In this document: positions 6,231 to 43,963 of the stretch, piece after piece
How the letters are laid out: each line of letters starts with the position of its first letter
How positions within the stretch are numbered: position 1 is the stretch's first letter
Virus record (IMG/VR): IMGVR_UViG_2526164669_000023
Location: 1-49,435 of that record
DNA from: a virus
Lineage: Duplodnaviria > Heunggongvirae > Uroviricota > Caudoviricetes
DNA length: 49,435 nucleotides
Reading direction: 5' to 3' (one strand)
Made by a program: the position numbers and the translations under genes
Notes under the pieces: generated by a model
What the model saw: the letters and a program-made list of their open reading frames with translations, nothing else
Databases searched by the model: none
What the model was told of the DNA's origin: nothing

Positions 6231-6671
6231 AATTATCTCCATTTTTACAAATGAACTTTGTTGATGCGGTGCCTGGTGCCTCCAGGTGACTGCAACCAGT
6301 TAACAATTACAGTCGGCTTTCCCACCCAAACCAATAAGGACTAACATGACTTTTAACTGTGCCACGTGCGCTTAGCCGCATTCACCGCATCACAAAATTC
6401 ACTTTAAAAAGGGCGGACATCAGCCGAACTTCAAGAAAAAAACTGATGCCGCCAGGACTACACACAGCAATGTCGTTATTTACAACCGGAGGCGCACTCC
6501 CACCATTTAAATTTAACAGACAAGACCGACTCTTTATGGATATCGGAAATGCGCCTTCGTGTTGTGCCCGGTTTTATTTCACCACCTCCGGGCTTCGGTG
6601 GTCTCGGCTATACCCCTACAGCGAGAGCTTGTGTTAACATTTCAATACCCTTACAGTTGAGAGTTATTGAT

Positions 6672-7160
6672 ATGTTGGATGTATTTACTCCATTGTTGAA
6701 ACTTTTTGCTAACGAGCCACTCGAAAGACTTATGTATACGATTATCATTTTTGGTCTCACTCTCTGGCTGATACCGAAAGAGTTTACTGTCGCATTCAAT
6801 GCTTATACTGAAATACCTTGGCTCTTTCAGATTATCGTTTTTGCCTTTTCTTTCGTGGTCGCCATTTCCTTCTCAAGATTGCGAGCACATATTCAAAAGC
6901 ATTATTCATTACTACCAGAGCAACGAGTATTGCTTCGTTTATCTGAGAAAGAAATCGCTGTATTTAAAGATTTCCTTAAAACAGGAAATCTTATTATCAC
7001 TTCTCCTTGCCGTAACCCGGTTATGAAAAAATTAGAACGGAAGGGCATCATTCAACATCAGAGTGATAGCGCAAACTGTTCTTATTATCTCGTCACCGAA
7101 AAATACTCCCATTTTATGAAGTTATTCTGGAACAGCAGGAGTAGACGTTTTAATCGTTAG
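6672..7160 (+). CDS. sieB: Superinfection exclusion protein B
   Basis: 162 aa from internal Met MLDVFTPLLKLFANEPLER; membrane-protein-like N-terminus; opposite strand to the early leftward operon as in Rac. Confidence 0.8.
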   Translation: MLDVFTPLLKLFANEPLERLMYTIIIFGLTLWLIPKEFTVAFNAYTEIPWLFQIIVFAFSFVVAISFSRLRAHIQKHYSLLPEQRVLLRLSEKEIAVFKDFLKTGNLIITSPCRNPVMKKLERKGIIQHQSDSANCSYYLVTEKYSHFMKLFWNSRSRRFNR

Positions 7161-10826: not shown

Positions 10827-11960
10827 ATGACTTGTCAAAGTATAATGAGAGATTGCATGAAGATTAACCATGAGGATTTAATTGATCTTATAAAGGCATC
10901 ACTGGATGCGAATTACAGCGAAGTTCGTAGTGTTAGTAATCGCATTGTTCGCGCAATTAGCGCTCAGGATGCTGACTTAGCAAAGCAAATTAAGTCTATC
11001 ATCCGTAAAAAAGGGGTACCATTACGTAGCTCTGGTTATACGGACAGTTTGCCCTTAGATCCGAAATCAAGGATGCCTTTAGTGGAAGAAGTCGAATGGC
11101 CTGCAACGCCTTTATTTCTTTCTGATGAATCACAGCATATTTTTCATGCTTTTATTCAGAATGTTATCCATCAGAATGAACTTATAGAGAATGGAATTCC
11201 AGGTAAATTGAATTTACTTCTTTCTGGTCCGCCAGGAACAGGTAAGACATTAGTCGCTGGTCATATCGCATCCAAATTAAACAAACCGCTCTATGTTGTT
11301 CGGCTTGACTCTGTTATTTCTTCTCTGTTAGGTGATACAGCGAAGAACCTAAGACAGATTTTTGACTTCGTCCCGACAAAAGATGGTGTGTTATTTCTTG
11401 ATGAAGTAGATGCGGTTGCTAAGCTTCGTGATGACAATCAGGAAGTTGGAGAGTTAAAAAGAGTTGTTAACACATTAATCCAAGGACTGGATTCTCTTGA
11501 TGATTCTGCTATTGTCATTGCTGCAACTAATCATTCGAAGCTATTGGATCCAGCAATTTGGAGACGTTTCCCATATAAAATTAGCTTTGGTTTGCCTGGA
11601 CAAGATGTCAGATGTGCTATGTGGGAACATTTTTTATTTAGAGATGATACGGATTCATTTCTAAGTAAAATGTTATCTATCATATCAACTGGGCTAACAG
11701 GTGCTGATATTGAAAATATCAGTTTATCTGCAAGAAGGCATAGTGTTTTATCTGGCAATGGACTGGATATACCATCTGTTGTTTATGCTATATTGAATAG
11801 CGTTGCAGATAGTACAGCAATTCCTTTTGGTAAGGATATAAATTCGAGTGTTAAGAAAAATTTAGCGAAGGAATTATCTAAGTTTAAATTATCACAGGCA
11901 GATATCGGTAGACTTTTAAATGTGAGCAGGCAAACTATATCAGGTTATTTCAAGGAATAA
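10827..11960 (+). CDS. Classical-clade AAA+ ATPase with C-terminal HTH (candidate defense ATPase, IetA-like)
   Basis: Walker A LLLSGPPGTGKT, Walker B VLFLDEVDA, sensor-1 IAATN, Arg-finger region LDPAIWRRFPY; C-terminal XRE-like HTH LSQADIGRLLNVSRQTISGYF. AT-rich relative to flanks. Alternative start at Met11 (10857). Confidence 0.75.
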   Translation: MTCQSIMRDCMKINHEDLIDLIKASLDANYSEVRSVSNRIVRAISAQDADLAKQIKSIIRKKGVPLRSSGYTDSLPLDPKSRMPLVEEVEWPATPLFLSDESQHIFHAFIQNVIHQNELIENGIPGKLNLLLSGPPGTGKTLVAGHIASKLNKPLYVVRLDSVISSLLGDTAKNLRQIFDFVPTKDGVLFLDEVDAVAKLRDDNQEVGELKRVVNTLIQGLDSLDDSAIVIAATNHSKLLDPAIWRRFPYKISFGLPGQDVRCAMWEHFLFRDDTDSFLSKMLSIISTGLTGADIENISLSARRHSVLSGNGLDIPSVVYAILNSVADSTAIPFGKDINSSVKKNLAKELSKFKLSQADIGRLLNVSRQTISGYFKE

Positions 11961-11962
11961 TT

Positions 11963-12538
11963 ATGGTCAGTGAAAATAAAGCTAAAATTTTAAACCCAAT
12001 AATTACTTTATTGAAGCCACCAACGCCAGAGGCGATTCCTGTTGGAGGGAAAAGTCGTAAAAATATTGTTGATTCACGGTTGAAACAACAGCGTGAAGTT
12101 TTATCCTCAGAGATAGATTCCATATTAAGAACAGAAGGTGAAATAGTTAAACATCGTGGTAAGTATCATATAGTAACAAGTATGTTTGAGGACTCATATG
12201 CACCATCGTTTATACCAGATTCATTATTCTGTCCCAGTGTTGAATGTAAGATAGTTGCACCAGCATACAATGGATATTTAATTGAGGTCAATAGCAATGC
12301 TTTATTGAAGTTGAAAAATAAAATTAATAATGCAAAAGCTATTACTGATCTTGTGGATATTTCAAGGGTTAGAAGTGTTAGTCTTTTTGATTCATCTTGT
12401 ACATTGCGAAATAGTAGCCTTGATTCGCTCTGGAATACAGTTAAGGCTTTGAATACATTTCAATTTAATATGTGGCTTATGCCTTTTTTTGATGAGCTTT
12501 CTAGAGAGTCTGTAGTTTCAACTTTTTTAAATTTTTAA
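11963..12538 (+). CDS. Hypothetical protein, middle gene of ATPase/protease cassette
   Basis: 191-aa ORF starting 3 nt after the ATPase stop; AT-rich; no motif I recognise. Confidence 0.55.
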   Translation: MVSENKAKILNPIITLLKPPTPEAIPVGGKSRKNIVDSRLKQQREVLSSEIDSILRTEGEIVKHRGKYHIVTSMFEDSYAPSFIPDSLFCPSVECKIVAPAYNGYLIEVNSNALLKLKNKINNAKAITDLVDISRVRSVSLFDSSCTLRNSSLDSLWNTVKALNTFQFNMWLMPFFDELSRESVVSTFLNF

Positions 12539-12741
12539 ATGATGGTATCATCGCTTTTGGTTATTCAGATTTTGACATAAAAACTATAAATCAAGATGCT
12601 GCTGTTGGCGGGGATAATATAGTCATAGTTCCACCGTTACTTATTGAAGCGATAAAAAAGTATCGTAAATCAGGTCAAGCATCCGTTACCGTCACTGTAG
12701 AGACTAAAGATAGTTTAAACAGGATACTGAATAGCAGTGCT

Positions 12742-14229
12742 GTGTATCGTATAGATCCTGTATCACCGCTAAACGTAACAGATACTCCTCCTGGTAATGG
12801 GGCTGAACCTGTTCCACCAATATTGGGGGATAAGAAAATGCCAACTGTAGTTGTAATTGATGGTGGGTGTAATGCGAAATCATATTCAAATTTAAATATA
12901 TATAAACTAAATCCGCTAATTCCAGATCATGATGCAGATTGTAAACATGGTAATAAAGTTGTATCGTTGTTATGTCACGGTTATGCTTGGAATAATAATT
13001 TAAACTTACCTAAATTGCAATGTAGCTATATAAGTGCACAGGCTATTGCGAAAAGGGGAGTGTTGAAACAACCAACTCCGGATCAATTTTTAAATTATTT
13101 AAGAATGGTTGCTGACAAAACGTCATCTATCGCCAAGGTCTGGAATCTTTCGTTTAATGAAGACGCTCCTCATTATAACTGTAATGAGATAAGTTATCTG
13201 GGACATAAAATCAGTTTGTTGGCTCGAGAATTTGGTATTCTGCCTGTAATATCTATCGGTAATGTTTCAAAGAACGAAAAACAAAAAAATCTTTGTCCGC
13301 CCGCAGATTGTGAGTCAGGAATTACAGTAAGTGGGAGAACGGCCAATCATGAAGGAATGCCTTCAGATGGCTGTCCTTTAAGTCGGAAAGGCCCTGCTCC
13401 TGCAGGAATGAAAAAACCTGAGTTATCATGGTTTTCTCGAGTTAGGGTGATAGGTGGAACAGTAGATATCGGAACAAGTTTTAGTGCTCCATTAGTTTCA
13501 TCTATTGCTGCTCATACCTTTTCGAATATTAAAAATGCCACTCCTGATTTGGTTAGGGCATTATTGATTAACAGGAGTGAGTTGCTTTCTCATGATGATG
13601 CATTAGGATGGGGGACTCCTTGGGATGGCGATTTACTGCCATGGTATTGTAAAGATGGCAGTGTCACATTAACGTGGATATCTAAGTTAAAGGCTGGGGC
13701 TGCTTATTATTGGAACGATCTTCCATTACCTCCAGAGATGTTAGTTAATGGTAAATTAGTTGGTGAGATATCTCTGACAGCTATACTAAAACCTAAGGTT
13801 TCTGAGTTCGGAAGTGAGAACTATTTTTCGACAAGGCTCCAATGTTCGTTACAGGCAATAAAAGAAATTAACGGAACGCTAAAAACAGAAAGCCTTCTTG
13901 GGTCAATGAAAGAATCTTCTGTTGATGAGCGTAAAGCTAGAAATGAACTTTCTAAATGGAGCCCTATTCGCCATCATGCAGAGTCGTTTAAGAGAAAAGA
14001 TATAACAGGGTGTAAAATTCGGCTTTATGCTAGGATATATGCTAGAGATTTGTATCAGTATGGGTTAAATAACCAACGGGAGCTTGAAGAGCAAGAGGTT
14101 TCCTTTGTTTTAACTTTTAAAAGTGTATCAGGATCGTCCTCAATATATACATCAATGGTTCAGCAACTTGGTGTTTATGTTGAAAGTGCTGTTATAGATA
14201 ATCACATTAACATAGATGTTAATAAGTGA
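12742..14229 (+). CDS. Subtilisin-like serine protease (peptidase S8) with C-terminal extension (IetS-like)
   Basis: D-H-S triad motifs in canonical order: VVVIDGGC, CKHGNKVV, GTSFSAPLVSSIAA; about 250 extra C-terminal residues. Track start is GTG; an ATG (MPTVVVIDGG) lies 32 codons downstream; in-frame stop at 12616. Confidence 0.75.
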   Translation: MYRIDPVSPLNVTDTPPGNGAEPVPPILGDKKMPTVVVIDGGCNAKSYSNLNIYKLNPLIPDHDADCKHGNKVVSLLCHGYAWNNNLNLPKLQCSYISAQAIAKRGVLKQPTPDQFLNYLRMVADKTSSIAKVWNLSFNEDAPHYNCNEISYLGHKISLLAREFGILPVISIGNVSKNEKQKNLCPPADCESGITVSGRTANHEGMPSDGCPLSRKGPAPAGMKKPELSWFSRVRVIGGTVDIGTSFSAPLVSSIAAHTFSNIKNATPDLVRALLINRSELLSHDDALGWGTPWDGDLLPWYCKDGSVTLTWISKLKAGAAYYWNDLPLPPEMLVNGKLVGEISLTAILKPKVSEFGSENYFSTRLQCSLQAIKEINGTLKTESLLGSMKESSVDERKARNELSKWSPIRHHAESFKRKDITGCKIRLYARIYARDLYQYGLNNQRELEEQEVSFVLTFKSVSGSSSIYTSMVQQLGVYVESAVIDNHINIDVNK

Positions 14230-15259: not shown

Positions 15260-15549
15260 TGGTGGATTTACGTAAAGCGGCGCGGGGGCAGATGTGCACC
15301 GTCAGAATTCCTGGCTACTGCAATCACAATCCCGAAACTTCTGTGCTGGCGCATTACCGACTGGCGGGGACGTGCGGAACAGCGACAAAACCACACGATA
15401 TGCAGGCAGCGATTGCCTGTAGATCGTGCCACGATTTAATCGACGGGCGGGTAAAAACCAGTGATTACACCAAAGAAGAATTACGCCTGATGCATGCAGA
15501 AGGTGTTTTTCGCACACAAGAAATCTGGAGAAAGGAGGGATATTTATGA
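15259..15549 (+). CDS. Lambdoid small Cys-rich protein (DUF1364 / YbcO-like)
   Basis: 96-aa ORF with Cys/His pairs (CTVRIPGYCNHN...CRSCHD); start overlaps the previous stop. Confidence 0.5.
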   Translation: MVDLRKAARGQMCTVRIPGYCNHNPETSVLAHYRLAGTCGTATKPHDMQAAIACRSCHDLIDGRVKTSDYTKEELRLMHAEGVFRTQEIWRKEGYL

Positions 15550-16088
15550 TTTACCCAACGAATACAGGAAAAAGCGGAGAACACCTTCGTCTCACTACGC
15601 TGGAAAGTGTCTGGATTCAGGGAAAACTACGTATGTGGGGGCGCTGGTCATATATTGGTGGTGGCAGGTCAGGAAATATGTTCAATCAGTTGTTGGCATC
15701 CAAAAAATTGACGAAAACAGCCATCAATGAAGCCCTGCGCAGAATGAAAAAAGCGGGAATAGAGAAACCTGAGCTGGAAGCGTTTTTGCGAGAGATGATC
15801 AATGGTAAGCAAAAGAGCTGGCTGGCGCATTGTACTGATGCAGAGGCGTTATGTATTGATCGGGTTATAAGTGAGGTGCTGGCAGAACATCCGGGATTGA
15901 TTAGCATCCTCCGACAACGGTATGAGGGGCGAGGAATGAGTAAGAGAAGGATGGCCGGGTTACTAAACGAACAGTATCCAGAGTGGTGTTTTAGCACATG
16001 CGAAAAGCGAATTGCTAATTGGTTGGCTGTTGCTGAGTGTGCGCTATACATTCCCATGCGAGAATCATTTGCTCAAAAAATGGCTTGA
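15546..16088 (+). CDS. Late-gene antitermination protein Q-like
   Basis: 180-aa ORF immediately upstream of a promoter-plus-short-terminated-leader arrangement; position between NinR-type genes and the lysis cassette. Confidence 0.6.
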   Translation: MIYPTNTGKSGEHLRLTTLESVWIQGKLRMWGRWSYIGGGRSGNMFNQLLASKKLTKTAINEALRRMKKAGIEKPELEAFLREMINGKQKSWLAHCTDAEALCIDRVISEVLAEHPGLISILRQRYEGRGMSKRRMAGLLNEQYPEWCFSTCEKRIANWLAVAECALYIPMRESFAQKMA

Positions 16089-16171
16089 TTTCTTACGCAT
16101 AAACTGCTTCAATTCCGATACGCTTCGCAAAGCTGTATCGCGTGGCGAATTAATCGCATGAACTTCACCAG

Positions 16172-16198
16172 AACCCGCCATTGAGCGGGTTTTGTTGT
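16172..16198 (+). terminator. tR'-like intrinsic terminator of the late leader
   Basis: CCCGC-CATTGA-GCGGG hairpin then TTTTGTTGTT, about 85 nt downstream of Q; candidate pR' (TTGATT, 17-bp spacer, TTCAAT) at about 16085-16113. Confidence 0.55.
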
Positions 16199-16541
16199 TA
16201 TGTTTAACCATCTACGGGAGAGCTGGCGCTCTACTGACTGGTATTTTGATAACGAAATCTTAAATATTTTATATTGTGATTGTTAGTTGTCTAAATTTTA
16301 TGTATGTTAAGCGGCACAGGATTCCTCCTGCGACGAAGTTTTAGTGGAATCATTATTTACTTTTCTTATGCCAGCCTTTCCTTGAGGTTGGTTTTTTTAT
16401 ACCTGAAAAAGCAGGTTGGTACGTTAAACTTTATGATGGCTATGCAATTTTAGTTTCTCCTTTCCTGAACCCTATTGACTACATGGAATTTTCTTTGTTA
16501 TGTAAAGCGAGTTAATGTTGTTAAGTTGTTAGAGGATGATT

Positions 16542-17255
16542 ATGAGTGACAGTACTCTGCTCAGGAATTCTTCACTTTTTGTTGCTTACATGGGGTGTCT
16601 TGGGTGGGGAAGTGCTTATTTCTATGGCTGGGGTACTTCCTTTTACTATGGCTTTCCATGGTGGGTTGTCGGGGCCGGTGTTGATGATGTGGCCAGAAGC
16701 CTGTTTTATGCTGTCACAGTTATCGTTATATTCTTGGCTGGATGGGGGATCGGTATTGTCTTCTTTCTGGGGATCAAACAAAAAAATAATATGAAGGATT
16801 TGAGTGCTGTCAGGCTTTTTCTTGCGATATTGTTGCTTTTTGTTCCTCCGGCTCTGGAGTTTTCGGTAATTCATCAGCACTTTGTGCCAGATGCATTGGT
16901 TTTATGCGCTATTGTGGCATTAATAATTACCATGTTCGTCAGAACGGGCAGGAAGTTTATTTACGTTAAATGTATTTCTGAAGTGTCTTTTATTCGGCAT
17001 CACAAGATTGAGTGTGTTATGGCCGGATTCATGCTCTATTTCTGGTTGTTTTCGCTTATTGCTGGATGGTACAAACCTCAGTTTAAGAAGGAGTATCAGA
17101 CACTTCACTATGAGAGCGTTTGGTATTACGTTCTTGCTCGCTATGGTGATCGCTTGGTTTTATCAAAATCGTACAGGCACGGTAGTACGAATTTCGTTAT
17201 ACTTAATAGCGCACATACAGATGAATTTGAAATTAATATAGTCAAAGTGCGCTAA
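16542..17255 (+). CDS. Multi-pass membrane protein (moron, unknown function)
   Basis: About 237-aa ORF, AT-rich, aromatic/Gly-rich hydrophobic segments (GWGSAYFYGWGTSFYYGFPWWVVGAG...); RBS AGAGGA upstream of the second ATG. Confidence 0.6.
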   Translation: MSDSTLLRNSSLFVAYMGCLGWGSAYFYGWGTSFYYGFPWWVVGAGVDDVARSLFYAVTVIVIFLAGWGIGIVFFLGIKQKNNMKDLSAVRLFLAILLLFVPPALEFSVIHQHFVPDALVLCAIVALIITMFVRTGRKFIYVKCISEVSFIRHHKIECVMAGFMLYFWLFSLIAGWYKPQFKKEYQTLHYESVWYYVLARYGDRLVLSKSYRHGSTNFVILNSAHTDEFEINIVKVR

Positions 17256-17395
17256 AACATTATGAGTAACCGGGATATAGACTTTTCTGCTTGTTGTTCA
17301 GATATTTTTACTTGATTGTAGCTGACATACAAGATTTAAACGGTTGTGTTGGGTGGATTACAGCGCTAAACTGATTCAGTCAATATTTTTCAATC

Positions 17396-17471
17396 GGCCC
17401 TTTAGCTCAGTGGTGAGAGCGAGCGACTCATAATCGCCTGGTCGCTGGTTCAAATCCAGCAAGGGCCACCA
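17396..17471 (+). tRNA. tRNA with CAU anticodon (Ile2/Met type, ileZ-like)
   Basis: 76 nt; acceptor GGCCCTT/AAGGGCC, anticodon loop CTCATAA, T-arm GCTGG-TTCAAAT-CCAGC, 3' CCA. Confidence 0.8.
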
Positions 17472-17473
17472 TT

Positions 17474-17550
17474 CCGCCACTAGCTCATCGGGATAGAGCA
17501 TCAACCTTCTAAGTTGATTGTGCGAGGTTCGAGTCCTCGGTGGCGGACCA
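17474..17550 (+). tRNA. tRNA-Arg (anticodon UCU)
   Basis: 77 nt; acceptor CCGCCAC/GTGGCGG, anticodon loop CTTCTAA, T-arm CGAGG-TTCGAGT-CCTCG, 3' CCA. Confidence 0.8.
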
Positions 17551-18034
17551 TTCCATGCAAGTTTAGCTGGCAGCGCTATTAGCTCGGCGTAATAGGGCTA
17601 TTCGTTAGGCTCTGTTAGTTCACCATATTTCGTCAAAACTTTTCTTTTCAACGCTACAGTTAACGTTAATCATTACAAAAACTACTGCTGATGTAAGTCT
17701 TGTGAACTGTTATTTCTGAAGAGCTTACTGTGATTTATTGCGACAACGGAGTTAGCGTACTCCCAATTTGTTCATTTTTATGTTGTTTTTTTTCACAATT
17801 TCCTGTGAGAAATCAGAAGTCTGGATGAAATAATGCAAAATGGCATCTGAATCGATCGCAGTTTGGCATTCGAATCGATCATGATTTGGCATCCATCTCC
17901 GATCACAGTTTGGCATCACAATCGATCACGATTTGGCATACTTCCGATCATTGATTGGCATTCGCCAGTCACTCCGGGAATTAACTCTTTTCACCACAGT
18001 CTCCATTGCCGTGTTTAAACCAGTGGAGACGTCA

Positions 18035-19600
18035 ATGTCCAAAAAGAGAAAATCCAGGAGCACTATGGAAACTTGTTTTAAGATCCTTCAGCTCAAGTTC
18101 GATAAGAAGCTGACTAACCGTTGTATCGGACTGACGTTACACATCAGCGCCTCAACCGTTTTTGAGGTTCTTGCCCGCTTCAAAGCCTCTTCTCTGTCAT
18201 GGCCATTACCTGCTGATATATCCCATGACACGCTGGAGAAACTCATTTTCCCGCCCAAAGACACCTCTGCGTCAGAGCTTGTTATGCCTGACATGCTGTA
18301 CTTCGATACGGAAATGAGAAAACCTGGCGTGACGCGCCAACTGTTGTGGATGGAATACAAGGCACAGGCGGGTGACAAAGCGATGGGATACTCACACTTC
18401 TGCCGTTGCTACCGGAAGTGGAAAAAAACGCGACGCCTCTCCATGCGACAGGAGCATCGTGCTGGCGAAAAGCTCTTTATCGACTTCTGTGGTCCTACGC
18501 TTCCTGTTATTAATCCGGACACCGGAGAGATACGCCGCGTGGCAATCTTCGTGGCTGTAATGGGGGCGTCCAACTATACCTATGTTGAAGCGTGCGAAGG
18601 TCAGGACATGATGTCATGGTTAAATGCCCACAGCCGTTGCCTGACCTTCCTGGGCGGCGTACCGAAGCTGCTCATCCCCGATAACCTCAGAAGCGCAGTG
18701 AAAAAAGCCGATCGCTATGAGCCTGTCATCAACGACAGTTATCAGGCGCTGGCTGAGCACTATGGCACGGTTATTATCCCGGCCCGCCCGCGCAAACCTA
18801 AAGATAAACCAAAAGCAGAAAACGGCGTCCTCATCGTCGAGCGATGGCTTCTTGCCCGCATCCGTAATGAAACCTTCCACACGCTCAGGGCGCTGAATGC
18901 ACGCCTTCGGGAGTTGCTGACGGACATGAATAACCGACCAATGAAGGGATACGGTAATCAAACCCGCGCAGAACGCTTCCGCATGCTGGATGCACCAGCA
19001 CTCTCTCCGCTGCCTCTGGAGCCTTATGAATACACGGAATACAAAGCCGTGAAGGTTGGCCCTGACTACCACGTTGAATATGCCCGTCACTGGTACTCCG
19101 TTCCACACGAACTGGTCGGTCAGCGTCTGTCACTGAAGGTGGGGCAGTCGGTGGTACAGCTCTGGCACAAGGGGCAGTGTGTGGCGCAACATCCGCGCAG
19201 CACACATGAATATAAACACACAACCAATCCGCTTCACATGCCAGAACGCCACCGGCGGCATGGGACATGGACACCGGAACGCCTTATCGAGCAGGGAAAC
19301 CGTACAGGTCCGTCCACAGGCCGGGTGGTTGAATCCATGCTGAAAGCCAAACCCCATCCGGAGCTGGCTTACCGTGCAGTCCTGGGTCTGCTGGCACTTC
19401 AGAAAAAATACGGCCCGGAACGGCTGGAAAAGGCCTGTTACGTTGCCCTGCACTATAACGCCCCGGACAGACGCTTTATCGACAATCTGCTGCGTCATCA
19501 TCGGGATAACGTTGAGCTTCCGTTATCCCGCCAGGGCGAACAACATCCGGCATATGCTTCAGAGCATGAAAACCTGCGTGGTCCTGGCTACTACCACTGA
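18035..19600 (+). CDS. istA: IS21-family transposase IstA
   Basis: 521 aa from MSKKRKSRSTMETCF; N-terminal HTH and DDE-type core; followed by an IstB ATPase. Confidence 0.8.
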   Translation: MSKKRKSRSTMETCFKILQLKFDKKLTNRCIGLTLHISASTVFEVLARFKASSLSWPLPADISHDTLEKLIFPPKDTSASELVMPDMLYFDTEMRKPGVTRQLLWMEYKAQAGDKAMGYSHFCRCYRKWKKTRRLSMRQEHRAGEKLFIDFCGPTLPVINPDTGEIRRVAIFVAVMGASNYTYVEACEGQDMMSWLNAHSRCLTFLGGVPKLLIPDNLRSAVKKADRYEPVINDSYQALAEHYGTVIIPARPRKPKDKPKAENGVLIVERWLLARIRNETFHTLRALNARLRELLTDMNNRPMKGYGNQTRAERFRMLDAPALSPLPLEPYEYTEYKAVKVGPDYHVEYARHWYSVPHELVGQRLSLKVGQSVVQLWHKGQCVAQHPRSTHEYKHTTNPLHMPERHRRHGTWTPERLIEQGNRTGPSTGRVVESMLKAKPHPELAYRAVLGLLALQKKYGPERLEKACYVALHYNAPDRRFIDNLLRHHRDNVELPLSRQGEQHPAYASEHENLRGPGYYH

Positions 19601-19616
19601 CAGAAGGAACAACCGT

Positions 19617-20372
19617 ATGAGTGATAATCTGTTAAACAAACTGACCCAACTGAAACTCCCGGCGATGGCCGGGAGCCTGATACGGCAACGGGAAACGCCT
19701 CAGACTTACGACGAACTGTCGTTCGAGGAAAGGCTGACACTGCTGGTTGATGACGAGCTTCTGAGCAGAGAAAACAGTCGTGTGGCACGGTTGAGAAAAA
19801 ATGCCTGCCTGAAATATCAGGCAACACCGGAAGGGCTGCGTTATCCGGCCTCAAGAGGTCTGCGGGCTGAACAGATGAGGGAACTGCTGAACGGCCACTA
19901 CATAATCCACAGGAAAAACCTACTGATAACCGGTCCGACAGGATGCGGTAAGAGCTGGATAGCCAATGCGCTGGGCGAACAGGCATGTCGACAGAAATAC
20001 AGCGTCCGGTACTGTAGAACCGGGCGATTACTGGAACAGTTGGCTCAGGGACGTGTTGATGGCAGTTGGCTGAAATATCTGAAACAGTTGCAAAAAATAC
20101 AGGTTCTAATCCTGGACGATCTGGGGCTGGAACAGTTAAGTAACGCCCAGTGTAATGACCTTCTGGAGATCACAGAGGATCGTTACGGACAAAGCAGCAC
20201 GATAGTGGTAAGCCAGTTCCCGGTAGATAAATGGCATGGTCTGATGGAGAACCCAACAACAGCAGATGCCATCCTGGACAGACTGGTACATAACTCACAC
20301 AGAGTGGTCCTTCAGGGAGAGTCCCTGAGGAAAAATCCCCCGACAGTGGAAAGCAGCGAAAAAACGAGTTAA
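19617..20372 (+). CDS. istB: IS21-family helper ATPase IstB
   Basis: 251 aa from MSDNLLNKLTQLKLPAMAG; Walker A GPTGCGKSWIANAL, Walker B VLILDDLG. Confidence 0.8.
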   Translation: MSDNLLNKLTQLKLPAMAGSLIRQRETPQTYDELSFEERLTLLVDDELLSRENSRVARLRKNACLKYQATPEGLRYPASRGLRAEQMRELLNGHYIIHRKNLLITGPTGCGKSWIANALGEQACRQKYSVRYCRTGRLLEQLAQGRVDGSWLKYLKQLQKIQVLILDDLGLEQLSNAQCNDLLEITEDRYGQSSTIVVSQFPVDKWHGLMENPTTADAILDRLVHNSHRVVLQGESLRKNPPTVESSEKTS

Positions 20373-21147
20373 AAAGCGGTAGAAAAAGTTAAGTTCCCGG
20401 TTGATCGAATGGATGCGAATCGCTGATCGAACTTCGATGCCAATCCGTGATCGAATAGAGCGGAATACGCAAATAACGTAAATTGTATGCGTATGATACA
20501 TATTTATACATATATTTAAATATGAAAACTAATTAGTTTTTGATGTCATATAAATTATCGGTAATATTACTCCCGACCCGAAAGGCAGCAAGTTTCTGTT
20601 CACAGGGGTGTTACCCGCTGTCTTGCGGGTCATTGCAGGCATCCGTTTAATCATAATGAAGGGCTGTTATCAGTATCAGTGTCATTATTGTGGTTACGGA
20701 GGCCTGCTCTATGTGCAGGTATCGTATAGTGGTTATTACATCAGCCTTAGGTTGGTAATGCCGGTTCGATTCCTGTTCTCCGCAACTTCATTGTTTTTTG
20801 GACAAGTTTTTACAGCACTGGCGGTTTTCGTGAGGAACAGATCTCTTTAATACCTTTATCGTCCCTCATTCTGTAATGGAGATCGGTTACAGACTCAGTG
20901 CTGTATTTTTTATGACACAGAAATGGCGCATTGCCCACGAAAGGAAGCAGGATTTAGCGTGGAGTAACCAGTGATGCGCCATCTCTGTGTCGGAAAACAT
21001 GAATTGGGGCGTTCCTCAGTGCGAGGGTGGTTTATAGAGTCGGTTTAGCGGGAAACCACAGTATCCACGTAAAGTGGAATACTTCGGGAGGCACCCGATG
21101 CCCCAAACCCAATAATCATTATAATATTGTGTCCTTTTATCGTTTTA

Positions 21148-21335: not shown

Positions 21336-21728
21336 ATGTCTGAACCCTTATCCGGTTCCGGTACGGCTGCGGCGCTCGGTGGGGCGACGGTATTTGGACT
21401 GTTTACCGGAACGGATTTCGGGATTGTGTTTGGTGCATTCGCCGGGGCGTTGTTTGTGGCGACGATACCCCAGCAGATTTCTGTCTGGCGTGTGGCGGCG
21501 CATTTTCTGGTGTCGTTTATCGTTGGCGTGCTGGGGGCGGATGTCATGGCGTCTTATCTGGTCGAAAAACTGGGGCTACACAGCACATCTCTCGACGCGC
21601 TTTGCGCGGTACTGGTATCGGTGATTTCGGTGAAGATTCTGTCGTTCATCCACCAGCAGGATATTGCATCACTGGTATCCGGCCTGTTCTCCCGCCTGCG
21701 GGATGGAGGAGGCGGCAATGTCAGGTAA
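21336..21728 (+). CDS. Holin (putative)
   Basis: 130-aa small protein with Gly/Ala-rich hydrophobic segments; RBS GGGAGGAA; first gene of the lysis cassette. Confidence 0.6.
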   Translation: MSEPLSGSGTAAALGGATVFGLFTGTDFGIVFGAFAGALFVATIPQQISVWRVAAHFLVSFIVGVLGADVMASYLVEKLGLHSTSLDALCAVLVSVISVKILSFIHQQDIASLVSGLFSRLRDGGGGNVR

Positions 21729-21993
21729 CCTTCCCGGATTGCTGAATGTGGCGTTATGCACGGTTATCGTACTGACGCTCTTTTTTTACCGTCGTCGTGA
21801 TTCCAGACATAAACCGCTGATGTCATGGCTGGCCTGGCTGTTGATGCTGCTTTATGCCTTTGCGCCACTCAGCTATCTGTGTGGTCGTCCGTTAGCAATG
21901 GGCTGGCTGGAAGTGTTTTTTAATCTGTTGTTCTGCGTGCTGGTAATACGCGCACGCGGGAACGTCACAAAAATCTTTCCATTGTTGAGGTGA
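21718..21993 (+). CDS. Second small lysis membrane protein (holin/antiholin-like)
   Basis: About 91 aa from MSGNLPGLLNVALCTVIVLTLFFY; two hydrophobic segments; overlaps the holin stop; RBS GGAGGAGG. Confidence 0.5.
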   Translation: MSGNLPGLLNVALCTVIVLTLFFYRRRDSRHKPLMSWLAWLLMLLYAFAPLSYLCGRPLAMGWLEVFFNLLFCVLVIRARGNVTKIFPLLR

Positions 21994-21995
21994 AT

Positions 21996-22373
21996 ATGTC
22001 GGGTAAATTCAGATTCAGCCGTCGCAGTGAAAAAAATCTGGAGGGCGTCAAACCACAGCTGGTTGCTGTCGTTCGCCGTGCGCTGGAGCTGACGGAGGTT
22101 GATTTCGGTATTACGGAAGGCCTGCGCAGTAAGTATCGCCAGAAACAGCTGGTTGCAGAAGGCAAGAGCCAGACCATGAACAGCCGCCACCTGACAGGTG
22201 ATGCGGTGGATGTTGTTGCCTACATTGGTAGCCAGGTGTCATGGGACTGGCCTCTGTACGAGAAAATCGCGCAGGCATTTAAGCAGGCTGCCGCAGAGCT
22301 GGGAACTGCCATCGAATGGGGCGGGGACTGGAAAACACTGAAAGACGGACCTCACTTTCAGTTGAAACGCTGA
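21996..22373 (+). CDS. Endolysin, peptidase M15-like (L-alanyl-D-glutamate peptidase type)
   Basis: About 125-aa ORF following the holin genes; motifs SRHLTGDAVDV and WGGDW fit my recollection of M15 endolysins; start 21990 (GTG) or 21996 (ATG). Confidence 0.6.
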   Translation: MSGKFRFSRRSEKNLEGVKPQLVAVVRRALELTEVDFGITEGLRSKYRQKQLVAEGKSQTMNSRHLTGDAVDVVAYIGSQVSWDWPLYEKIAQAFKQAAAELGTAIEWGGDWKTLKDGPHFQLKR

Positions 22374-22974: not shown

Positions 22975-23766
22975 ATGAGCGAGAAATTGAAGATCGTCTA
23001 TCGCCCGTTACAAGAACTGTCTCCGTATGCACACAATGCCAGGACACACAGCCCTGAGCAGGTGGCACAACTGGTAGAAAGCATTAAGCAATTCGGCTGG
23101 ACTAATCCAGTGCTGATTGATGAAAAGGGCGAAATTATTGCTGGTCACGGTCGCGTTATGGCGGCTGAGGCGCTCAAAATGGATTCGGTTCCGGTTATTG
23201 TTCTGTCTGGTCTGACGGATGATCAGAAAAAGGCGTACCGCCTGGCAGATAATCGCCTGCCGATGAATGCTGGCTGGGATGAAGATCTGTTACGGATGGA
23301 GCTGTCGGACCTAATCAATGCTGATTTTGATATCTCCCTGACAGGATGCAGCCCGACAGAAATTGATGAACTGTTGACGGATGTTTTGCCCGGTACAGGA
23401 AATGAGGAGGAACCGTACACGACGAAAATTGATACGCCTGTTTATGAGCCGTCGGGCGATAAACCAGATATCAGTGAACTGTACGACGATACGAAAACTC
23501 AGGAGTTGATCAGCCGGATACGTTCGGCGTCCCTTGATCCTGATATTGAGAAATTCCTCCTGTGTGCGGCAGAACGTCATACGGTGTTTAATTTCAGCAG
23601 AATTGCGGACTATTACGCTCACGCCCCCGCTGAAATTCAGTGCTTTTTCGAGGAATCGGCGCTGGTGATCATTGATTATCAGCAGGCTATTGAAAATGGA
23701 TTTGTCCGGATGACGCAGCGTATGGTGGAGATCATGCATGGCGGGGAGGAGGAGGAATATGCGTGA
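22975..23766 (+). CDS. ParB-like nuclease domain protein
   Basis: 263-aa ORF; N-terminal ParB/Srx-type motif (LIDEKGEIIAGHGRVMAA); acidic C-terminus; upstream of terminase genes. Confidence 0.6.
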   Translation: MSEKLKIVYRPLQELSPYAHNARTHSPEQVAQLVESIKQFGWTNPVLIDEKGEIIAGHGRVMAAEALKMDSVPVIVLSGLTDDQKKAYRLADNRLPMNAGWDEDLLRMELSDLINADFDISLTGCSPTEIDELLTDVLPGTGNEEEPYTTKIDTPVYEPSGDKPDISELYDDTKTQELISRIRSASLDPDIEKFLLCAAERHTVFNFSRIADYYAHAPAEIQCFFEESALVIIDYQQAIENGFVRMTQRMVEIMHGGEEEEYA

Positions 23767-24697
23767 TGATTTTTGCGCCTTTATTCTGACTCACGGGCGA
23801 CCGGACAAAGTTCTGACTTACCGGACGTTGCGTCGTGCTGGCTATACCGGGAAAATTTTTATCGTTGTTGATGATGAAGATAAAGATAATACACGGCATC
23901 ACTACATAGCTGAATTTAGTGAACAGGTGCTGGTGTTTTCCAAAGCCGATATCGCCAGTCGTTTTGACGAAGCCGATAATTTCGGTGACCGCCGATCAAT
24001 TTTTTACGCCCGTAATGCCTGTTTCGACCTGGCAAAACTGGTCGGGTGTAAATACTTCATTCAGCTCGATGATGATTATCACGAGTTCCAGTTTCGGGTG
24101 GATCGCAACTATGACCAGGCCTATTTCCCGATAAGAAAACTGGATGCGATCCTTTCTGAAATGCTGGCGTACTACGAATCAATACCTGCGCTTTCCATCG
24201 CTATGTCGCAGGGCGGAGATTTTCTTGGTGACAATGGCGGCCATGCTTCGTGGGTGAAACGCAAGGCAATGAACAGTTTTATCTGTTCCGTTGATCGACC
24301 GTTCTCATTCATGGGGCGCATTAACGAGGATGTGAATACGTATACGAATCTTGGTCGCTGTGGTGAATTGTTTATGACGATCGGTGCTGTCCAGTTAGGG
24401 CAGAAACAGACGCAGAAAAACAGCGGCGGAATGACCGAGCTGTATCTGGACTCCGGAACCTACGTTAAAAGTTTTTACTCCGTCATGTATGCGCCGTCGT
24501 GCGTAAAAATCTCACTGATGGGTGCCAGCCATAAACGCATTCACCATCAGGTCACCTGGAACAACGCTGCAGTAAAAATCCTTCACGAAAAATACAGGAA
24601 GAAGACACCCTGCATATCAATGGGGGTGACAAATGATTCCGTATTCGAAAGTAGAGTCTCTGGCAGCGTGCCGGATGACTGCACAACAAATCGCTGA
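23759..24697 (+). CDS. Hypothetical protein, possible GT-A-like glycosyltransferase
   Basis: 312 aa from MRDDFCAFILTHGRPDK; candidate DXD motif FIQLDDDY; RBS GGAGGAGGAA; overlaps the ParB-like gene by 8 nt. Function is a guess. Confidence 0.4.
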   Translation: MRDDFCAFILTHGRPDKVLTYRTLRRAGYTGKIFIVVDDEDKDNTRHHYIAEFSEQVLVFSKADIASRFDEADNFGDRRSIFYARNACFDLAKLVGCKYFIQLDDDYHEFQFRVDRNYDQAYFPIRKLDAILSEMLAYYESIPALSIAMSQGGDFLGDNGGHASWVKRKAMNSFICSVDRPFSFMGRINEDVNTYTNLGRCGELFMTIGAVQLGQKQTQKNSGGMTELYLDSGTYVKSFYSVMYAPSCVKISLMGASHKRIHHQVTWNNAAVKILHEKYRKKTPCISMGVTNDSVFESRVSGSVPDDCTTNR

Positions 24698-27311: not shown

Positions 27312-28751
27312 TTGATGGCAGAGATCGAGATTACTGGCGGCCTCGGTTCAGCACTGATGCGTATTCTTGAGGCTGAAGAAATTCAGCCGGGAACCGATAT
27401 TGGCTATGAATTGTGTAAGCTGCTGTGGCAATTCCATCCTCTGGGCGGAAAACTTGTCGAAAAACCCATACTGATGGCGATGTGTAAGCCGCGACAGTAT
27501 AACGTGGAGACAGATCCTGACGAGAGGGTTGTGCGGCGTTTCCAGGAGGTATGGGAACGTATGAGGGTCAACGAGAAGATAAAAAATCTGTTTTTTCTGT
27601 CTCGTTGCTACGGTGCTGCAGCGATCGGCGTGGGCACCGACAGTGTTTCATGTCGTGAGCCGCTTCCGACATTCGGGCTGACAGAAGAGGATGTGTATAT
27701 CAACGCGTGGGATCCGTTGAACGCTTCCGGTTCGATGGTGACTGACCAGAACCCAAACAGTCCGTTTTTCCAGGAAGCCAACAAAAGGCTGAAGATTGGC
27801 GGAAAAGACTGGCATCCGTCACGCACACTGAAAATCTTCAACGGCACACCGATTTATCTGGAGTTTCAGAGTTCATCGTTCGGATTCACCGGACGAAGTG
27901 TGTTTCAGCGCGTTCTTTATTCCCTGAAATCCTATATCAACACGATGGAGGCGAATGATCTCGTCAGTCAGAAGGCGGGCGTACTGGTAGCTAAAGTTGT
28001 GCAGTCCGGTTCGAAAATGGACGGGATCATGGCTGCTGCCACGGGGCGTAAAAGGGAAAACGTGAAAGCCGCCAAAAATAAAGGCGTGTTGAGTATTGGA
28101 AAAGACGAAGACGTAAGTTCACTGAACCTGCAAAACATCGACGGGGCGCTGAATACTGCCCGCGACAATATCATTGCTGATATTGCCGCCGGGAGTGACG
28201 TTCCGGCCATTATTATCAAGGAAGAAGCATTCAGTAACGGATTCGGTGAAGGTAAGGAGGACTCGAAAGCCATCAGCCAGTATATCGATGGTGTACGCCA
28301 GCAGATTGAACCTGTGATGGATTATTTCGAACGCCTGGTGCAGTACATCGCCTGGAACGAGGAATTTTATCAGTCGCTGAAAAATGATTACCCGGACATC
28401 ATAACCGAGGACTATAAAACCACGTTTTACCAGTGGCGGCGCGAGTTTACCGCGACGTGGCAGGAGCTGGTGGAGGAGTCGCCGGACAAACGCCGGGAAA
28501 GCGACAGTAAAGTGATTCAACAGGCGATAGCACTTTTCTCTGCCGTGTCGCTACAGGTTGATCCTGAAAACCGTGCCGCCGTCACTGAATGGCTGGCAAG
28601 CCTTGTTAATGCCACGCAGACCTATGGCGAAGCTCCACTCATCATTGATGTGGACGCCCTGGCGAATTATGAACCACCGAAGCAGGAGACGCCTGATGGC
28701 AATTTCCAGCCGGGCGGGGAGGAAGAAGAAACGGATCAGGACGCTGTATGA
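27312..28751 (+). CDS. Portal protein (putative)
   Basis: 479-aa ORF immediately after TerL; acidic C-terminus; assigned by position and size. Confidence 0.5.
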   Translation: MMAEIEITGGLGSALMRILEAEEIQPGTDIGYELCKLLWQFHPLGGKLVEKPILMAMCKPRQYNVETDPDERVVRRFQEVWERMRVNEKIKNLFFLSRCYGAAAIGVGTDSVSCREPLPTFGLTEEDVYINAWDPLNASGSMVTDQNPNSPFFQEANKRLKIGGKDWHPSRTLKIFNGTPIYLEFQSSSFGFTGRSVFQRVLYSLKSYINTMEANDLVSQKAGVLVAKVVQSGSKMDGIMAAATGRKRENVKAAKNKGVLSIGKDEDVSSLNLQNIDGALNTARDNIIADIAAGSDVPAIIIKEEAFSNGFGEGKEDSKAISQYIDGVRQQIEPVMDYFERLVQYIAWNEEFYQSLKNDYPDIITEDYKTTFYQWRREFTATWQELVEESPDKRRESDSKVIQQAIALFSAVSLQVDPENRAAVTEWLASLVNATQTYGEAPLIIDVDALANYEPPKQETPDGNFQPGGEEEETDQDAV

Positions 28752-42802: not shown

Positions 42803-43963
42803 ATGGAAAATTTTGCAAATAAGTTAAAAATACACACAGAGCATGTTGCAAAAATGGGGGTGTTTTGTACAACTGAAGAAACGACAAAACAAGCACTCAT
42901 TATGCCATTACTAGATATTCTTGGTTTTACTCCGTATGATCCAAGAAAAGTCAAAGCTGAGTATAGTGCTGACTTCCCCGGGGTTAAGGCTAATGAACGG
43001 GTTGATTACGCTTTATTTTGTCATGATGTTCCTGTGATGTTCATTGAGGCGAAATCGTTTTCAGAACAAATTGATAATCACTGCCCACAGCTATCAAGAT
43101 ATTTTAATTCAACACCGGAAGTTACTATATCAGCCATTACAAATGGTGTTGAATGGCGTTTTTTTACGGATTTGAAACAAAAAAACATAATGGATTCAAC
43201 GCCGTTTTTAAAAATAAGAATGGATTCTCTAACTCACTCCGATATTACACAATTATTTCGTTTTCGTTATGATAAATTCAAACCAGAGGCTTTACGGACA
43301 CTGGCTGAAGAAAGTGTTTATTTGAATTCATTTACTAAAACAATCAGTTCTAGTCTTCGTGAAGTTGATCTGGAGTTTGTTCGATATGTTGCTAGTCGTT
43401 CAAATATTGAGAGACAACTTAATCAGAGATTTCTTGAGTTCGTGACTCCATTAGTTAAACAGGCCGTTGAGCGCGCTGTTAGCGCAATGGTGGTTTCCGG
43501 GCTATCTACACAACCGGTAGAGCAAACTAAAGAAAATGATGCAACGGATACACAAGTTAATAACGCCATTGTTGATGAAGAAAACCCCAACATAATAACC
43601 ACAGCCAAAGAATTGGAGCTATTTGAAAGGGTAAAACAAATCATACAAACAGAAGATAATATAGAATATAAAGATACTGAGTCATATTTTGGTGTACTAT
43701 TGAATGGTAAAACTAATAGATGGCTGTTAAGATTTTATGATAAAAAATCTTCATTTATAACTTTACCTATTTCGCTTAGTGAAGTTCAGTTGAATGAAAT
43801 AAGACGAGCTCGACTTGATACGGATGGTAAAAGGATACATATAACTAATCCGGAAGATATACTTCGCATATCTGGTTTGATTCTGGATTCATACGAGTAT
43901 GTTAAAAATGATGATAATTTCCGCCGAGGGTCCAGAGCGAGCAGTTTAGAAGAGGTTGAATAA
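42803..43963 (+). CDS. PD-(D/E)xK nuclease-fold protein, HsdR N-terminal-like domain (moron; candidate defense gene)
   Basis: About 386-aa ORF; motif ERVDYALFCHDVPVMFIEAKSF (D...E-A-K); AT-rich, own RBS GGAGGAG, promoter-like AT-rich upstream region with TTGACA at about 42745, own terminator. Confidence 0.65.
   Translation: MENFANKLKIHTEHVAKMGVFCTTEETTKQALIMPLLDILGFTPYDPRKVKAEYSADFPGVKANERVDYALFCHDVPVMFIEAKSFSEQIDNHCPQLSRYFNSTPEVTISAITNGVEWRFFTDLKQKNIMDSTPFLKIRMDSLTHSDITQLFRFRYDKFKPEALRTLAEESVYLNSFTKTISSSLREVDLEFVRYVASRSNIERQLNQRFLEFVTPLVKQAVERAVSAMVVSGLSTQPVEQTKENDATDTQVNNAIVDEENPNIITTAKELELFERVKQIIQTEDNIEYKDTESYFGVLLNGKTNRWLLRFYDKKSSFITLPISLSEVQLNEIRRARLDTDGKRIHITNPEDILRISGLILDSYEYVKNDDNFRRGSRASSLEEVE

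Follow-up and report, generated by a model that had tools for sequence, protein, structure and literature searches.

The stretch of DNA analysed here, called the window throughout, comprises all 49,435 nucleotides (nt) of the IMG/VR virus record IMGVR_UViG_2526164669_000023, a Caudoviricetes prophage, and our subject is a gene within it for a membrane protein that follows a late antiterminator gene of the Q type. From sequence alone, an original prediction had placed an AT-rich gene for a 237-amino-acid (aa) protein at 16230-17260; the gene, its length and its low content of guanine plus cytosine (GC; 41% against 47%) have all held up, but the start of that interval takes in about 310 nt of non-coding leader. 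The open reading frame (ORF) itself runs from 16536 to 17255 on the plus strand, with 239 aa in open frame, and translation likely begins at the ATG at 16542, for a product of 237 aa. RefSeq annotates an identical 237-aa coding sequence (CDS), WP_001285363.1, as 'hypothetical protein', and the source of that entry is a Rac-site prophage of Escherichia coli OkiPb01675 that is 100% identical to the window across 16100-17400.

As had been predicted, the gene lies after Q, between a tR'-like terminator (hairpin at 16169-16194) and tRNA genes (17396-17550). The gene order is DUF1367, a YbcO-like nuclease, the Q-like gene, a strong terminator, an AT-rich leader, the membrane-protein gene and two tRNAs, followed by an IS21-like element, two holins and an M15 endolysin. 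The Q-like gene forms the upstream border of the region that holds the moron, and its stop lies 454 nt before the membrane-protein gene. An Rfam scan of 15900-18100 found the two tRNAs and nothing else. The features of this segment are as follows.

15546-16088, plus strand: Q-like late antiterminator gene of the DUF1133 type (Pfam DUF1133, 2.3e-106; Phage_antitermQ, weak, 1.4e-06)
16169-16204, plus strand: tR'-like intrinsic terminator from the terminator scan, with a 10-bp stem (CAGAACCCGC...GCGGGTTTTG) and a T-rich tail
16195-16369, plus strand: AT-rich spacer peculiar to this prophage, missing from two other aligned contexts
16370-16400, plus strand: another terminator-like hairpin, weaker than the first and with a run of T, which forms the left boundary of the cassette conserved across contexts (scan and alignment)
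16475-16504, plus strand: conserved promoter-like element, with -35 TTGACT (16475-16480), an 18-nt spacer, TG (16496-16497) and TATGTA (16499-16504)
16532-16535, plus strand: Shine-Dalgarno sequence GAGG, 6 nt ahead of the ATG at 16542
16542-17255, plus strand: CDS of the TfpB/STM1630-family inner-membrane protein, 237 aa (RefSeq, homology, selection, structural model)
17396-17550, plus strand: tRNA(CAU) and tRNA-Arg(UCU), neighbours outside the cassette, starting 140 nt after the membrane-protein gene

Family membership and selection

There is very little doubt that the gene is a self-contained prophage moron for an inner-membrane protein of the TfpB/STM1630 family (Pfam PF27470, PHROG 1521). 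PHROGs assigns the protein to phrog_1521 (function unknown) at 1.7e-85 over residues 19-239, and a search of 5.8 billion proteins recovered 127 homologous clusters annotated as hypothetical or as 'membrane protein'. Among the matches listed, 120 of 120 homologues carry a precomputed PF27470 assignment, and contig annotations name PF27470 'TfpB'. In a Pfam-A release without PF27470 and in NCBIfam the protein has no real match, and the same Pfam release matches none of the 54 aligned family members; the sole Pfam match, to an apicomplexan microprotein at E 0.013, was below the cut-off and was dismissed. Because an exhaustive hidden Markov model search of 1.84 billion cluster representatives retrieved only 71 proteins, the family must be small, and the members seen so far all come from animal-associated Gamma- and Betaproteobacteria, namely Enterobacteriaceae, Pasteurellaceae, Moraxella and Neisseriaceae.

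Selection on the gene was measured by the Nei-Gojobori method in pairs drawn from the window allele, the allele of strain 08-00022 (81% aa identity), phage 434, another Escherichia copy and three Salmonella copies. In each pair with unsaturated synonymous change, the overall ratio of nonsynonymous to synonymous change (dN/dS) is 0.05-0.15, and this purifying selection, together with the 127 homologous clusters, marks the ORF as a real gene and not a chance one. In the unsaturated pairs the first 55 residues have ratios of 0.00-0.07 and the C-terminal domain has ratios of 0.02-0.17, and no segment of any pair shows diversifying selection.

The gene is common in E. coli. A DNA match is present in 1197 of 5426 complete genomes (about 22%), often in several prophages, with a median of 2 and a maximum of 4 places per matching genome and 3 in the window's reference strain; only 3 records of the phage database have the gene. 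Other carriers include phage 434, whose CPT_434_68 (gp68), a 'putative membrane protein', is 58% identical, an Enterobacter Stx (Shiga toxin) prophage, and E. coli O157:H7 Sakai, whose copy, WP_001299184.1, is named 'STM1630 family protein' by NCBI; one further E. coli member is named 'protein tfpB'. Salmonella members are 46-48% identical over their full length (48% across residues 1-237 for those at loci L008 and L009), and the Salmonella protein is STM1630: its gene has 717 nt and is divergent from that of the 408-aa SseJ, and the published deletion primer encodes NSSMLLAYLGGLGWG.

Beyond the Enterobacteriaceae, a pattern scan of one genome per species, made with the narrower alignment A3 (the 23-sequence A2 being too diverse), turned up relatives in Moraxella bovis, M. 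lacunata, M. equi, M. oblonga, many Pasteurellaceae and Conchiformibius. The 261-aa ORF of M. bovis is 28% identical over residues 10-233 (tblastn, E 8e-18). In the Moraxella loci the relative has a type IV pilin gene on one side and a 322-aa recombinase of the IS110/Piv type on the other, in what we take to be the classical pilin inversion region where the ORF tfpB got its name. The ORF keeps its full length in M. bovis, whereas truncation has left 195-197 aa or 76 aa of it in M. lacunata, M. equi and M. oblonga. M. bovis TfpB and the window protein have in common their family, their length and the N-terminal motif W..AY.YGW(G/A)...YYG(F/Y)PWW/E...IARSL; they differ in setting, the Moraxella gene lying between pilin and Piv and the window gene being a lambdoid-prophage moron with no pilus genes near.

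RefSeq, Pfam and PHROGs already catalogue the protein, as a family to which no function is assigned, and it is ordinary prophage cargo; PF27470 has no mention in the indexed literature, in which no paper joins tfpB with Moraxella or piv. What the present analysis adds is the linking of phage 434 gp68, the copies of enterohaemorrhagic E. coli (EHEC) and Stx prophages, STM1630 and Moraxella TfpB as one family, together with the predicted topology, the cassette boundaries, the candidate promoter and the selection pattern. The link between gp68, STM1630 and Moraxella TfpB also gives experimenters three tractable systems.

Leader, composition and codon usage

The tR'-like terminator lies 80 nt past the Q stop codon, and the segment 16100-16199, which spans its hairpin, is 91-93% identical to phage records. 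This first hairpin is closely similar to the only hairpin ahead of the homologous gene in strain 08-00022, and the second one lines up with the terminator hairpins that stand before the homologues in phage 434 (annotated there as a terminator) and in 08-00022. The window has tandem terminator-like hairpins within 16169-16400, separated by the 175-bp AT-rich spacer, where two other aligned contexts have a single hairpin. The leader from 16195 to 16541, spacer included, has 34.6% GC. Within the spacer there is a promoter-like match (TTGATA-18-TATATT, 16246-16275, 10/12), and a small ORF in the leader, 16304-16453, was taken as a chance one. A terminator downstream of the membrane-protein gene was sought and none was found.

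The promoter-like element closer to the gene has the consensus CT(C/A)TTGAC(T/G)nCAT(G/T)GAAT....TTTGTTATG and hardly varies among five Escherichia copies, even though the encoded proteins share only about 57% identity; it is more strongly conserved than the coding sequence. In one of the five (L007), the sequence further upstream of the element is unrelated. We read the element as a putative extended -10 promoter of the gene's own.

The membrane-protein gene has 41.3% GC and 36.7% T. The whole window has 47.1% GC, the upstream nin-region genes 46-50%, and the spacers that flank the membrane-protein gene 34-37%. Rare codons are frequent in it: ATA occurs 5 times, and AGA and AGG account for 6 of its 10 arginine codons. 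As a separate observation, the two tRNAs directly downstream, with anticodons CAU and UCU, would read exactly ATA and AGA/AGG, the codons that the gene uses so heavily. ARAGORN calls the CAU tRNA a tRNA-Met and RefSeq a tRNA-Ile; on the latter assignment it is presumably lysidine-modified and reads AUA.

Predicted topology and conserved surfaces

The original prediction described a multi-pass membrane protein with aromatic and glycine-rich segments and a soluble C-terminus, and in this the hydropathy and the structural model agree with it. The Kyte-Doolittle profile has four strong hydrophobic segments plus an uncharged, aromatic and glycine-rich one at residues 9-47; the first 55 residues include 14 Phe, Trp or Tyr and 8 Gly, and the C-terminal 60 aa or so are not hydrophobic. 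An AlphaFold2 model from a 54-sequence alignment (pLDDT, the per-residue confidence score, 78.9; pTM, the overall template-modelling score, 0.72) was used here, an earlier run with 24 close sequences having been too poor (pLDDT 61). It predicts helices at residues 4-36, 47-78, 89-111, 116-135 and 155-181, and a C-terminal beta domain of five strands and about 55 aa at residues 184-235. That domain is faintly like SH3 and Sm-like barrels, which we offer as a description of shape only.

Over the 54 sequences, the mean number of lysines plus arginines is 2.0 in the N-terminus, 2.7 in loop 2 and 3.6 in loop 4, as against 0.67 in loop 1 and 0.70 in loop 3, and the distribution is alike in all three subfamilies. 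Under the positive-inside rule, these counts suggest that the N-terminus is cytoplasmic; with the five transmembrane (TM) helices of the model, loop 1 and the C-terminal barrel would be periplasmic. The family alignments and the model have one architecture in common, in about 235-260 aa: the aromatic/Gly motif near the N-terminus, some five hydrophobic helices and a short beta domain at the C-terminal end. The most conserved part of the protein is loop 1 with its flanks after helix 1 (GWGSAYFYGWGxSFYYGFPWW..GxDDxARSL). Only A15, A25, Y26, Y28, G37, P39, P102, F167, G175 and Y195 are at least 90% conserved family-wide, and in the family-wide alignment no acidic, basic, His, Ser or Cys residue is conserved. 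Because no polar catalytic residue is conserved across the family, the role of the protein is probably one of binding or scaffolding and not enzymatic.

The name TfpB suggests a type IV pilus accessory factor that assists or modulates pilin assembly in the manner of TfpY/FimB-type proteins, and the Moraxella homologue does lie inside the pilin inversion region, between the pilin gene and piv. TfpY/TfpZ/FimB-like proteins likewise start in the cytoplasm, cross the membrane in an odd number of TM helices and end in a periplasmic domain containing beta structure (PMC11841053). By their own description, however, those proteins stand apart (PMC11841053), with three TM helices, a larger, two-sheet domain of mixed alpha and beta structure and an invariable linkage to pilin, against five predicted helices and a small predicted barrel here and a place next to pilin in Moraxella only. 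No pilin or pilus gene is near in the window or in the Enterobacteriaceae, Pasteurellaceae and Conchiformibius contexts examined, and of the Moraxella copies only that of M. bovis escapes truncation, the rest having 195-197 aa or less. The Acinetobacter baylyi protein called TfpB appears to be an unrelated pilus extension-motor protein that shares the name only. A pilus role is, in our judgement, highly improbable.

Genomic contexts of the cassette

The cassette consists of a terminator-like hairpin, about 150 conserved bp and the gene, and it is delimited by E. coli matches of about 81% identity that span approximately 16390-17270. It follows Q genes of three unrelated Pfam families: PF06576 in the window, PF03589 in 08-00022 and O157 Sakai, and PF06323 in phage 434. 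In an Enterobacter cloacae Stx prophage (L035, CP017475, 2162-7017), whose Q is also of PF03589, the gene comes after stxA-stxB and before the holin and lysozyme genes. In phage 434 it lies inside a segment in place of which the laboratory phage 434B, itself viable, has DLP12 DNA (PMC9119081), and it is therefore dispensable for lytic growth. Outside phages, the Pasteurellaceae and Conchiformibius copies are solitary genes amid unrelated housekeeping genes (ribA/gmd, ilvE/mdh, tsaB/cdtA, smc/ftsK, dld/plsB, purF). The cassette is accordingly a self-contained moron and neither a lysis nor a structural gene, because it recurs behind three Q families, has a promoter-like element, is absent from viable 434B and occurs as solitary chromosomal copies elsewhere. 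Mosaic presence and absence, recurrence in differing backgrounds and a deviant composition (41.3% GC) are all typical of morons and all found here, and the moron position that had been proposed for the gene is borne out.

Its closest counterparts in phages, CPT_434_68 of phage 434 and the Sakai copy WP_001299184.1, likewise stand directly after Q and a terminator and have the same promoter-like element, but behind Q genes of families PF06323 and PF03589, respectively, and ahead of DUF3927/TciB-like, esterase and pinholin genes instead of tRNAs and an insertion sequence (IS). In the literature, 'TciB' pointed only to P1-type plasmid prophages. In phages the neighbours are other conversion genes, encoding LpxR, an Iss-like lipoprotein, a SASA esterase and Stx. 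With the other morons between Q and the lysis genes (stxAB, the NanS-p/SASA esterases, TerB/DUF3927 and, nearby, bor/iss-like genes and LpxR), the cassette shares its niche, Q-dependent late transcription and mosaic occurrence; the proteins are unrelated, and several of the others have known host-directed activities, whereas none is assigned to the window protein.

This position raises the alternative of an accessory late or lysis function, in which the first gene of the Q-dependent transcript tunes the timing of lysis, the breakdown of the envelope or the release of virions or Shiga toxin. The product is a membrane protein, and its gene is found directly after Q and tR' and upstream of the holin-endolysin cassette in the window, phage 434, O157 Sakai and 08-00022; in the E. 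cloacae Stx prophage, stxB precedes it and the lysis genes follow. Against this, a protein of 237 aa with five predicted helices is unlike holins and antiholins, the gene is about 4 kb from the holin genes, with tRNAs and the IS21-like element between (and other morons elsewhere), and phage 434B grows without the segment that holds it. Intact members under purifying selection are moreover chromosomal in Salmonella, and in Citrobacter and the Pasteurellaceae the gene is solitary with no lysis genes near. We regard a lysis function as very unlikely.

The chromosomal copies hold further observations. In Citrobacter rodentium the gene stands beside an LpxR pseudogene, at a locus syntenic with that of Salmonella, and in Klebsiella a distant subfamily lies between yedK and umuDC, beside a prophage integrase. 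A gene for the lipid A deacylase LpxR is found just upstream, on the opposite strand, both in phage 434 (L032, 2666-5717, with ylcG and Q between) and on the C. rodentium chromosome (L034, 3863-5717, the pseudogene). The chromosomal Citrobacter/Salmonella locus may be the remnant of a lambdoid Q region. In strains of Aggregatibacter actinomycetemcomitans (L011/L024 and L012/L016) there are two solitary copies, at different housekeeping loci.

Solitary genes, sometimes in several copies (two loci per genome in the A. actinomycetemcomitans strains) and mobile on phages, would also suit orphan immunity to a toxin aimed at the membrane, for example a colicin or bacteriocin that forms pores, or an effector of contact-dependent inhibition or of a type VI secretion system, which the protein would neutralise in the inner membrane or periplasm. 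Immunity proteins against pore-forming toxins are small, non-enzymatic, multi-pass inner-membrane proteins, and the conservation pattern suggests that the TfpB family is non-enzymatic as well. No partner gene is conserved across the contexts examined, however, and no toxin gene is consistently adjacent in them, cdtA and an HlyD-like gene each being a neighbour once; and the strong purifying selection and the almost invariant N-terminal region across genera are unlike polymorphic toxin-immunity pairs. Toxin immunity is accordingly improbable to our minds.

A possible role in lysogenic conversion

The family is conserved and under strong selection, and its gene shares the Q-controlled late region with Shiga toxin and other genes of conversion, which makes it a sensible candidate for lysogenic conversion or for exclusion. 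Overall, we favour the former and believe, with a probability of roughly 0.4, that the protein is a lysogenic-conversion factor of the envelope rather than a phage-cycle gene, because of the data on STM1630, the animal-associated distribution, the conversion-gene neighbours and the lack of an arms-race signature. The reality of the gene, its family membership, the purifying selection, the recurrence of the cassette and its composition are observed here, and dispensability in phage 434 comes from the literature, whereas the topology, the activity of the promoter, binding without catalysis and a role in host fitness are inferences.

STM1630 is the only family member with experimental data. It is bound by H-NS, is expressed in medium that induces Salmonella pathogenicity island 2 (SPI-2) and inside macrophages, and is silenced in ST313 strains through two single-nucleotide polymorphisms in the -10 of its promoter (PMC6785131 S1 Text). 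Its deletion leaves growth in lysogeny broth unaffected and raises intramacrophage fold-replication in strain 4/74, and signature-tagged mutants were reported to be attenuated in calves and chicks (PMC6785131 S1 Text). In the profiling of regulator mutants, it groups with SPI-2 and with the PhoP-type envelope genes pagD, ugtL, pqaA and lpxO (PMC2639726). Hypermotility of the STM1630 mutant was scored in one screen (PMC4219756), but it is not among the phenotypes confirmed with clean deletions (PMC4534456), and for that reason we have set the motility phenotype aside. STM1630 (SL1344_1560, 'putative membrane protein', between steB and sseJ) resembles the window gene in being AT-rich, horizontally acquired and equipped with its own promoter, the window's being the candidate element described above; it differs in being chromosomal, fixed in many serovars, silenced by H-NS, induced by SPI-2 conditions and in macrophages, and not beside Q or lysis genes, and what lies upstream of it bears no relation to the promoter-like element of the E. 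coli copies.

Under the lysogenic-conversion proposal, a general course of events can be suggested. In a lysogen, transcription from the gene's own promoter-like element would supply the protein; H-NS would probably silence that element and environmental signals turn it on, as for the Salmonella orthologue. The gene would also be transcribed, as the first one past tR', by Q-antiterminated late transcription. The periplasmic loop and barrel would then bind a conserved envelope component without catalysis, either a glycan (for example, peptidoglycan) or a conserved membrane protein, and this binding might alter the behaviour of the envelope in the animal host.

Several points weigh against such a role. 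No biochemical or genetic function is known for any family member, and the Salmonella phenotypes are weak, with the macrophage effect seen in one strain only; the signature-tagged insertions could, in addition, have had polar effects on steB or sseJ. Both the topology and the barrel fold are predicted, and fold searches gave no significant match that would back a binding role. The -10 hexamer of the candidate promoter, TATGTA, is imperfect, lacking the consensus final T. A place right after tR' fits a role in lytic growth only equally well, and up to four copies per genome would not be obviously useful for a general envelope factor.

The original prediction leaned instead towards superinfection exclusion or abortive infection; on that reading the loop and barrel would block the entry of phage genomes, or a membrane failure triggered on infection would protect the lysogen population. 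The cassette is indeed prophage-borne, single-gene, autonomous and apparently furnished with its own promoter; its product is an inner-membrane protein whose conserved parts are predicted to face the periplasm; the gene is common and often multi-copy in prophage-rich E. coli (the 1197 of 5426 genomes, with up to four copies each); and its scattered, solitary distribution in other genera recalls defence genes. The same prophage also holds other defence cargo in IetAS and in sieB, which RefSeq annotates at approximately 6671-7160. Small phage inner-membrane exclusion proteins, prophage- or early-expressed, include SieB of lambda and P22, Imm and Sp of T4 and gp15 of HK97. The window protein is like these in being small, phage-encoded and located in the inner membrane, but it has no similarity to them in family searches and differs in size and topology, with five TM helices and a periplasmic barrel predicted here, and no TfpB-family member is known to have an exclusion phenotype.

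The search results lend exclusion no support. PADLOC matched the protein to 0 families, and Pfam, NCBIfam and PHROGs gave no similarity to SieB, Imm, Sp or other annotated families of superinfection exclusion or abortive infection. The parts predicted to be exposed to the periplasm are the most conserved (dN/dS 0-0.07 and 0.02-0.17), with neither diversifying selection nor any other sign of an arms race; the Salmonella orthologue is co-regulated with virulence genes, and the indexed literature that mentions STM1630 describes no phage phenotype; and the Pasteurellaceae copies lie outside defence islands. Nor was the protein identified as a holin, a lysis component or a conserved host transporter fragment, the identities that the original prediction had named as speaking against its proposal. 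On balance, exclusion or abortive infection is an unlikely explanation, if one still worth keeping in mind.

A more speculative thought, and a rather doubtful one, is that the TfpB/STM1630 family constitutes an unrecognised single-gene, non-enzymatic factor of envelope protection or exclusion. In that event, the aromatic loop and the SH3-like barrel might bind peptidoglycan or a DNA-entry channel, and the cell would be shielded from muralytic or genome-injection attack by superinfecting phages, from host lysozyme, or from both. If true, this would explain why about one-fifth of complete E. coli genomes carry the gene and why it stands beside stx in some phages, as well as why it is confined to bacteria living in animal niches rich in lysozyme (eye, mouth, gut and macrophage).

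Other features of the prophage

Five further observations concern other parts of the window. In the nin region, an IetA/IetS anti-phage pair (an AAA ATPase and an S8 protease) lies at 10827-14229 on the plus strand (PADLOC, IetA 5e-100 and IetS 1e-58). IetS is here represented by two ORFs in different frames (11963-12538 and 12742-14229), where the otherwise matching RefSeq genome has a single 755-aa CDS, which points to a 1-bp difference, a frameshift or sequencing error.

The IS21-like element (ISSso4-family) occupies approximately 17600-20400 on the plus strand, between the tRNA genes and the holin/endolysin genes (21336-22373). Inserted within the Q-dependent late unit, it may be polar on the lysis and structural genes and thus cripple the prophage. 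Its two genes are the following.

18065-19600, plus strand: istA, part of the IS21-like element
19617-20372, plus strand: istB, part of the IS21-like element

Inside the baseplate/tail-fibre module, a gene annotated as 'type I restriction endonuclease' (42803-43963, plus strand) is probably a further defence-type moron. Right after the large terminase, a gene for a 478-aa protein (27315-28751, plus strand) bears the RefSeq label 'anti-CBASS protein Acb1 family protein'; it has the position and size of a portal protein, so the label may be wrong or else point to a fused domain. Finally, between the lysis genes and the small terminase (22975-24697, plus strand), there is an unusual pair of genes, one for a ParB/Srx-domain protein and one for a 'GREB1-related' protein.

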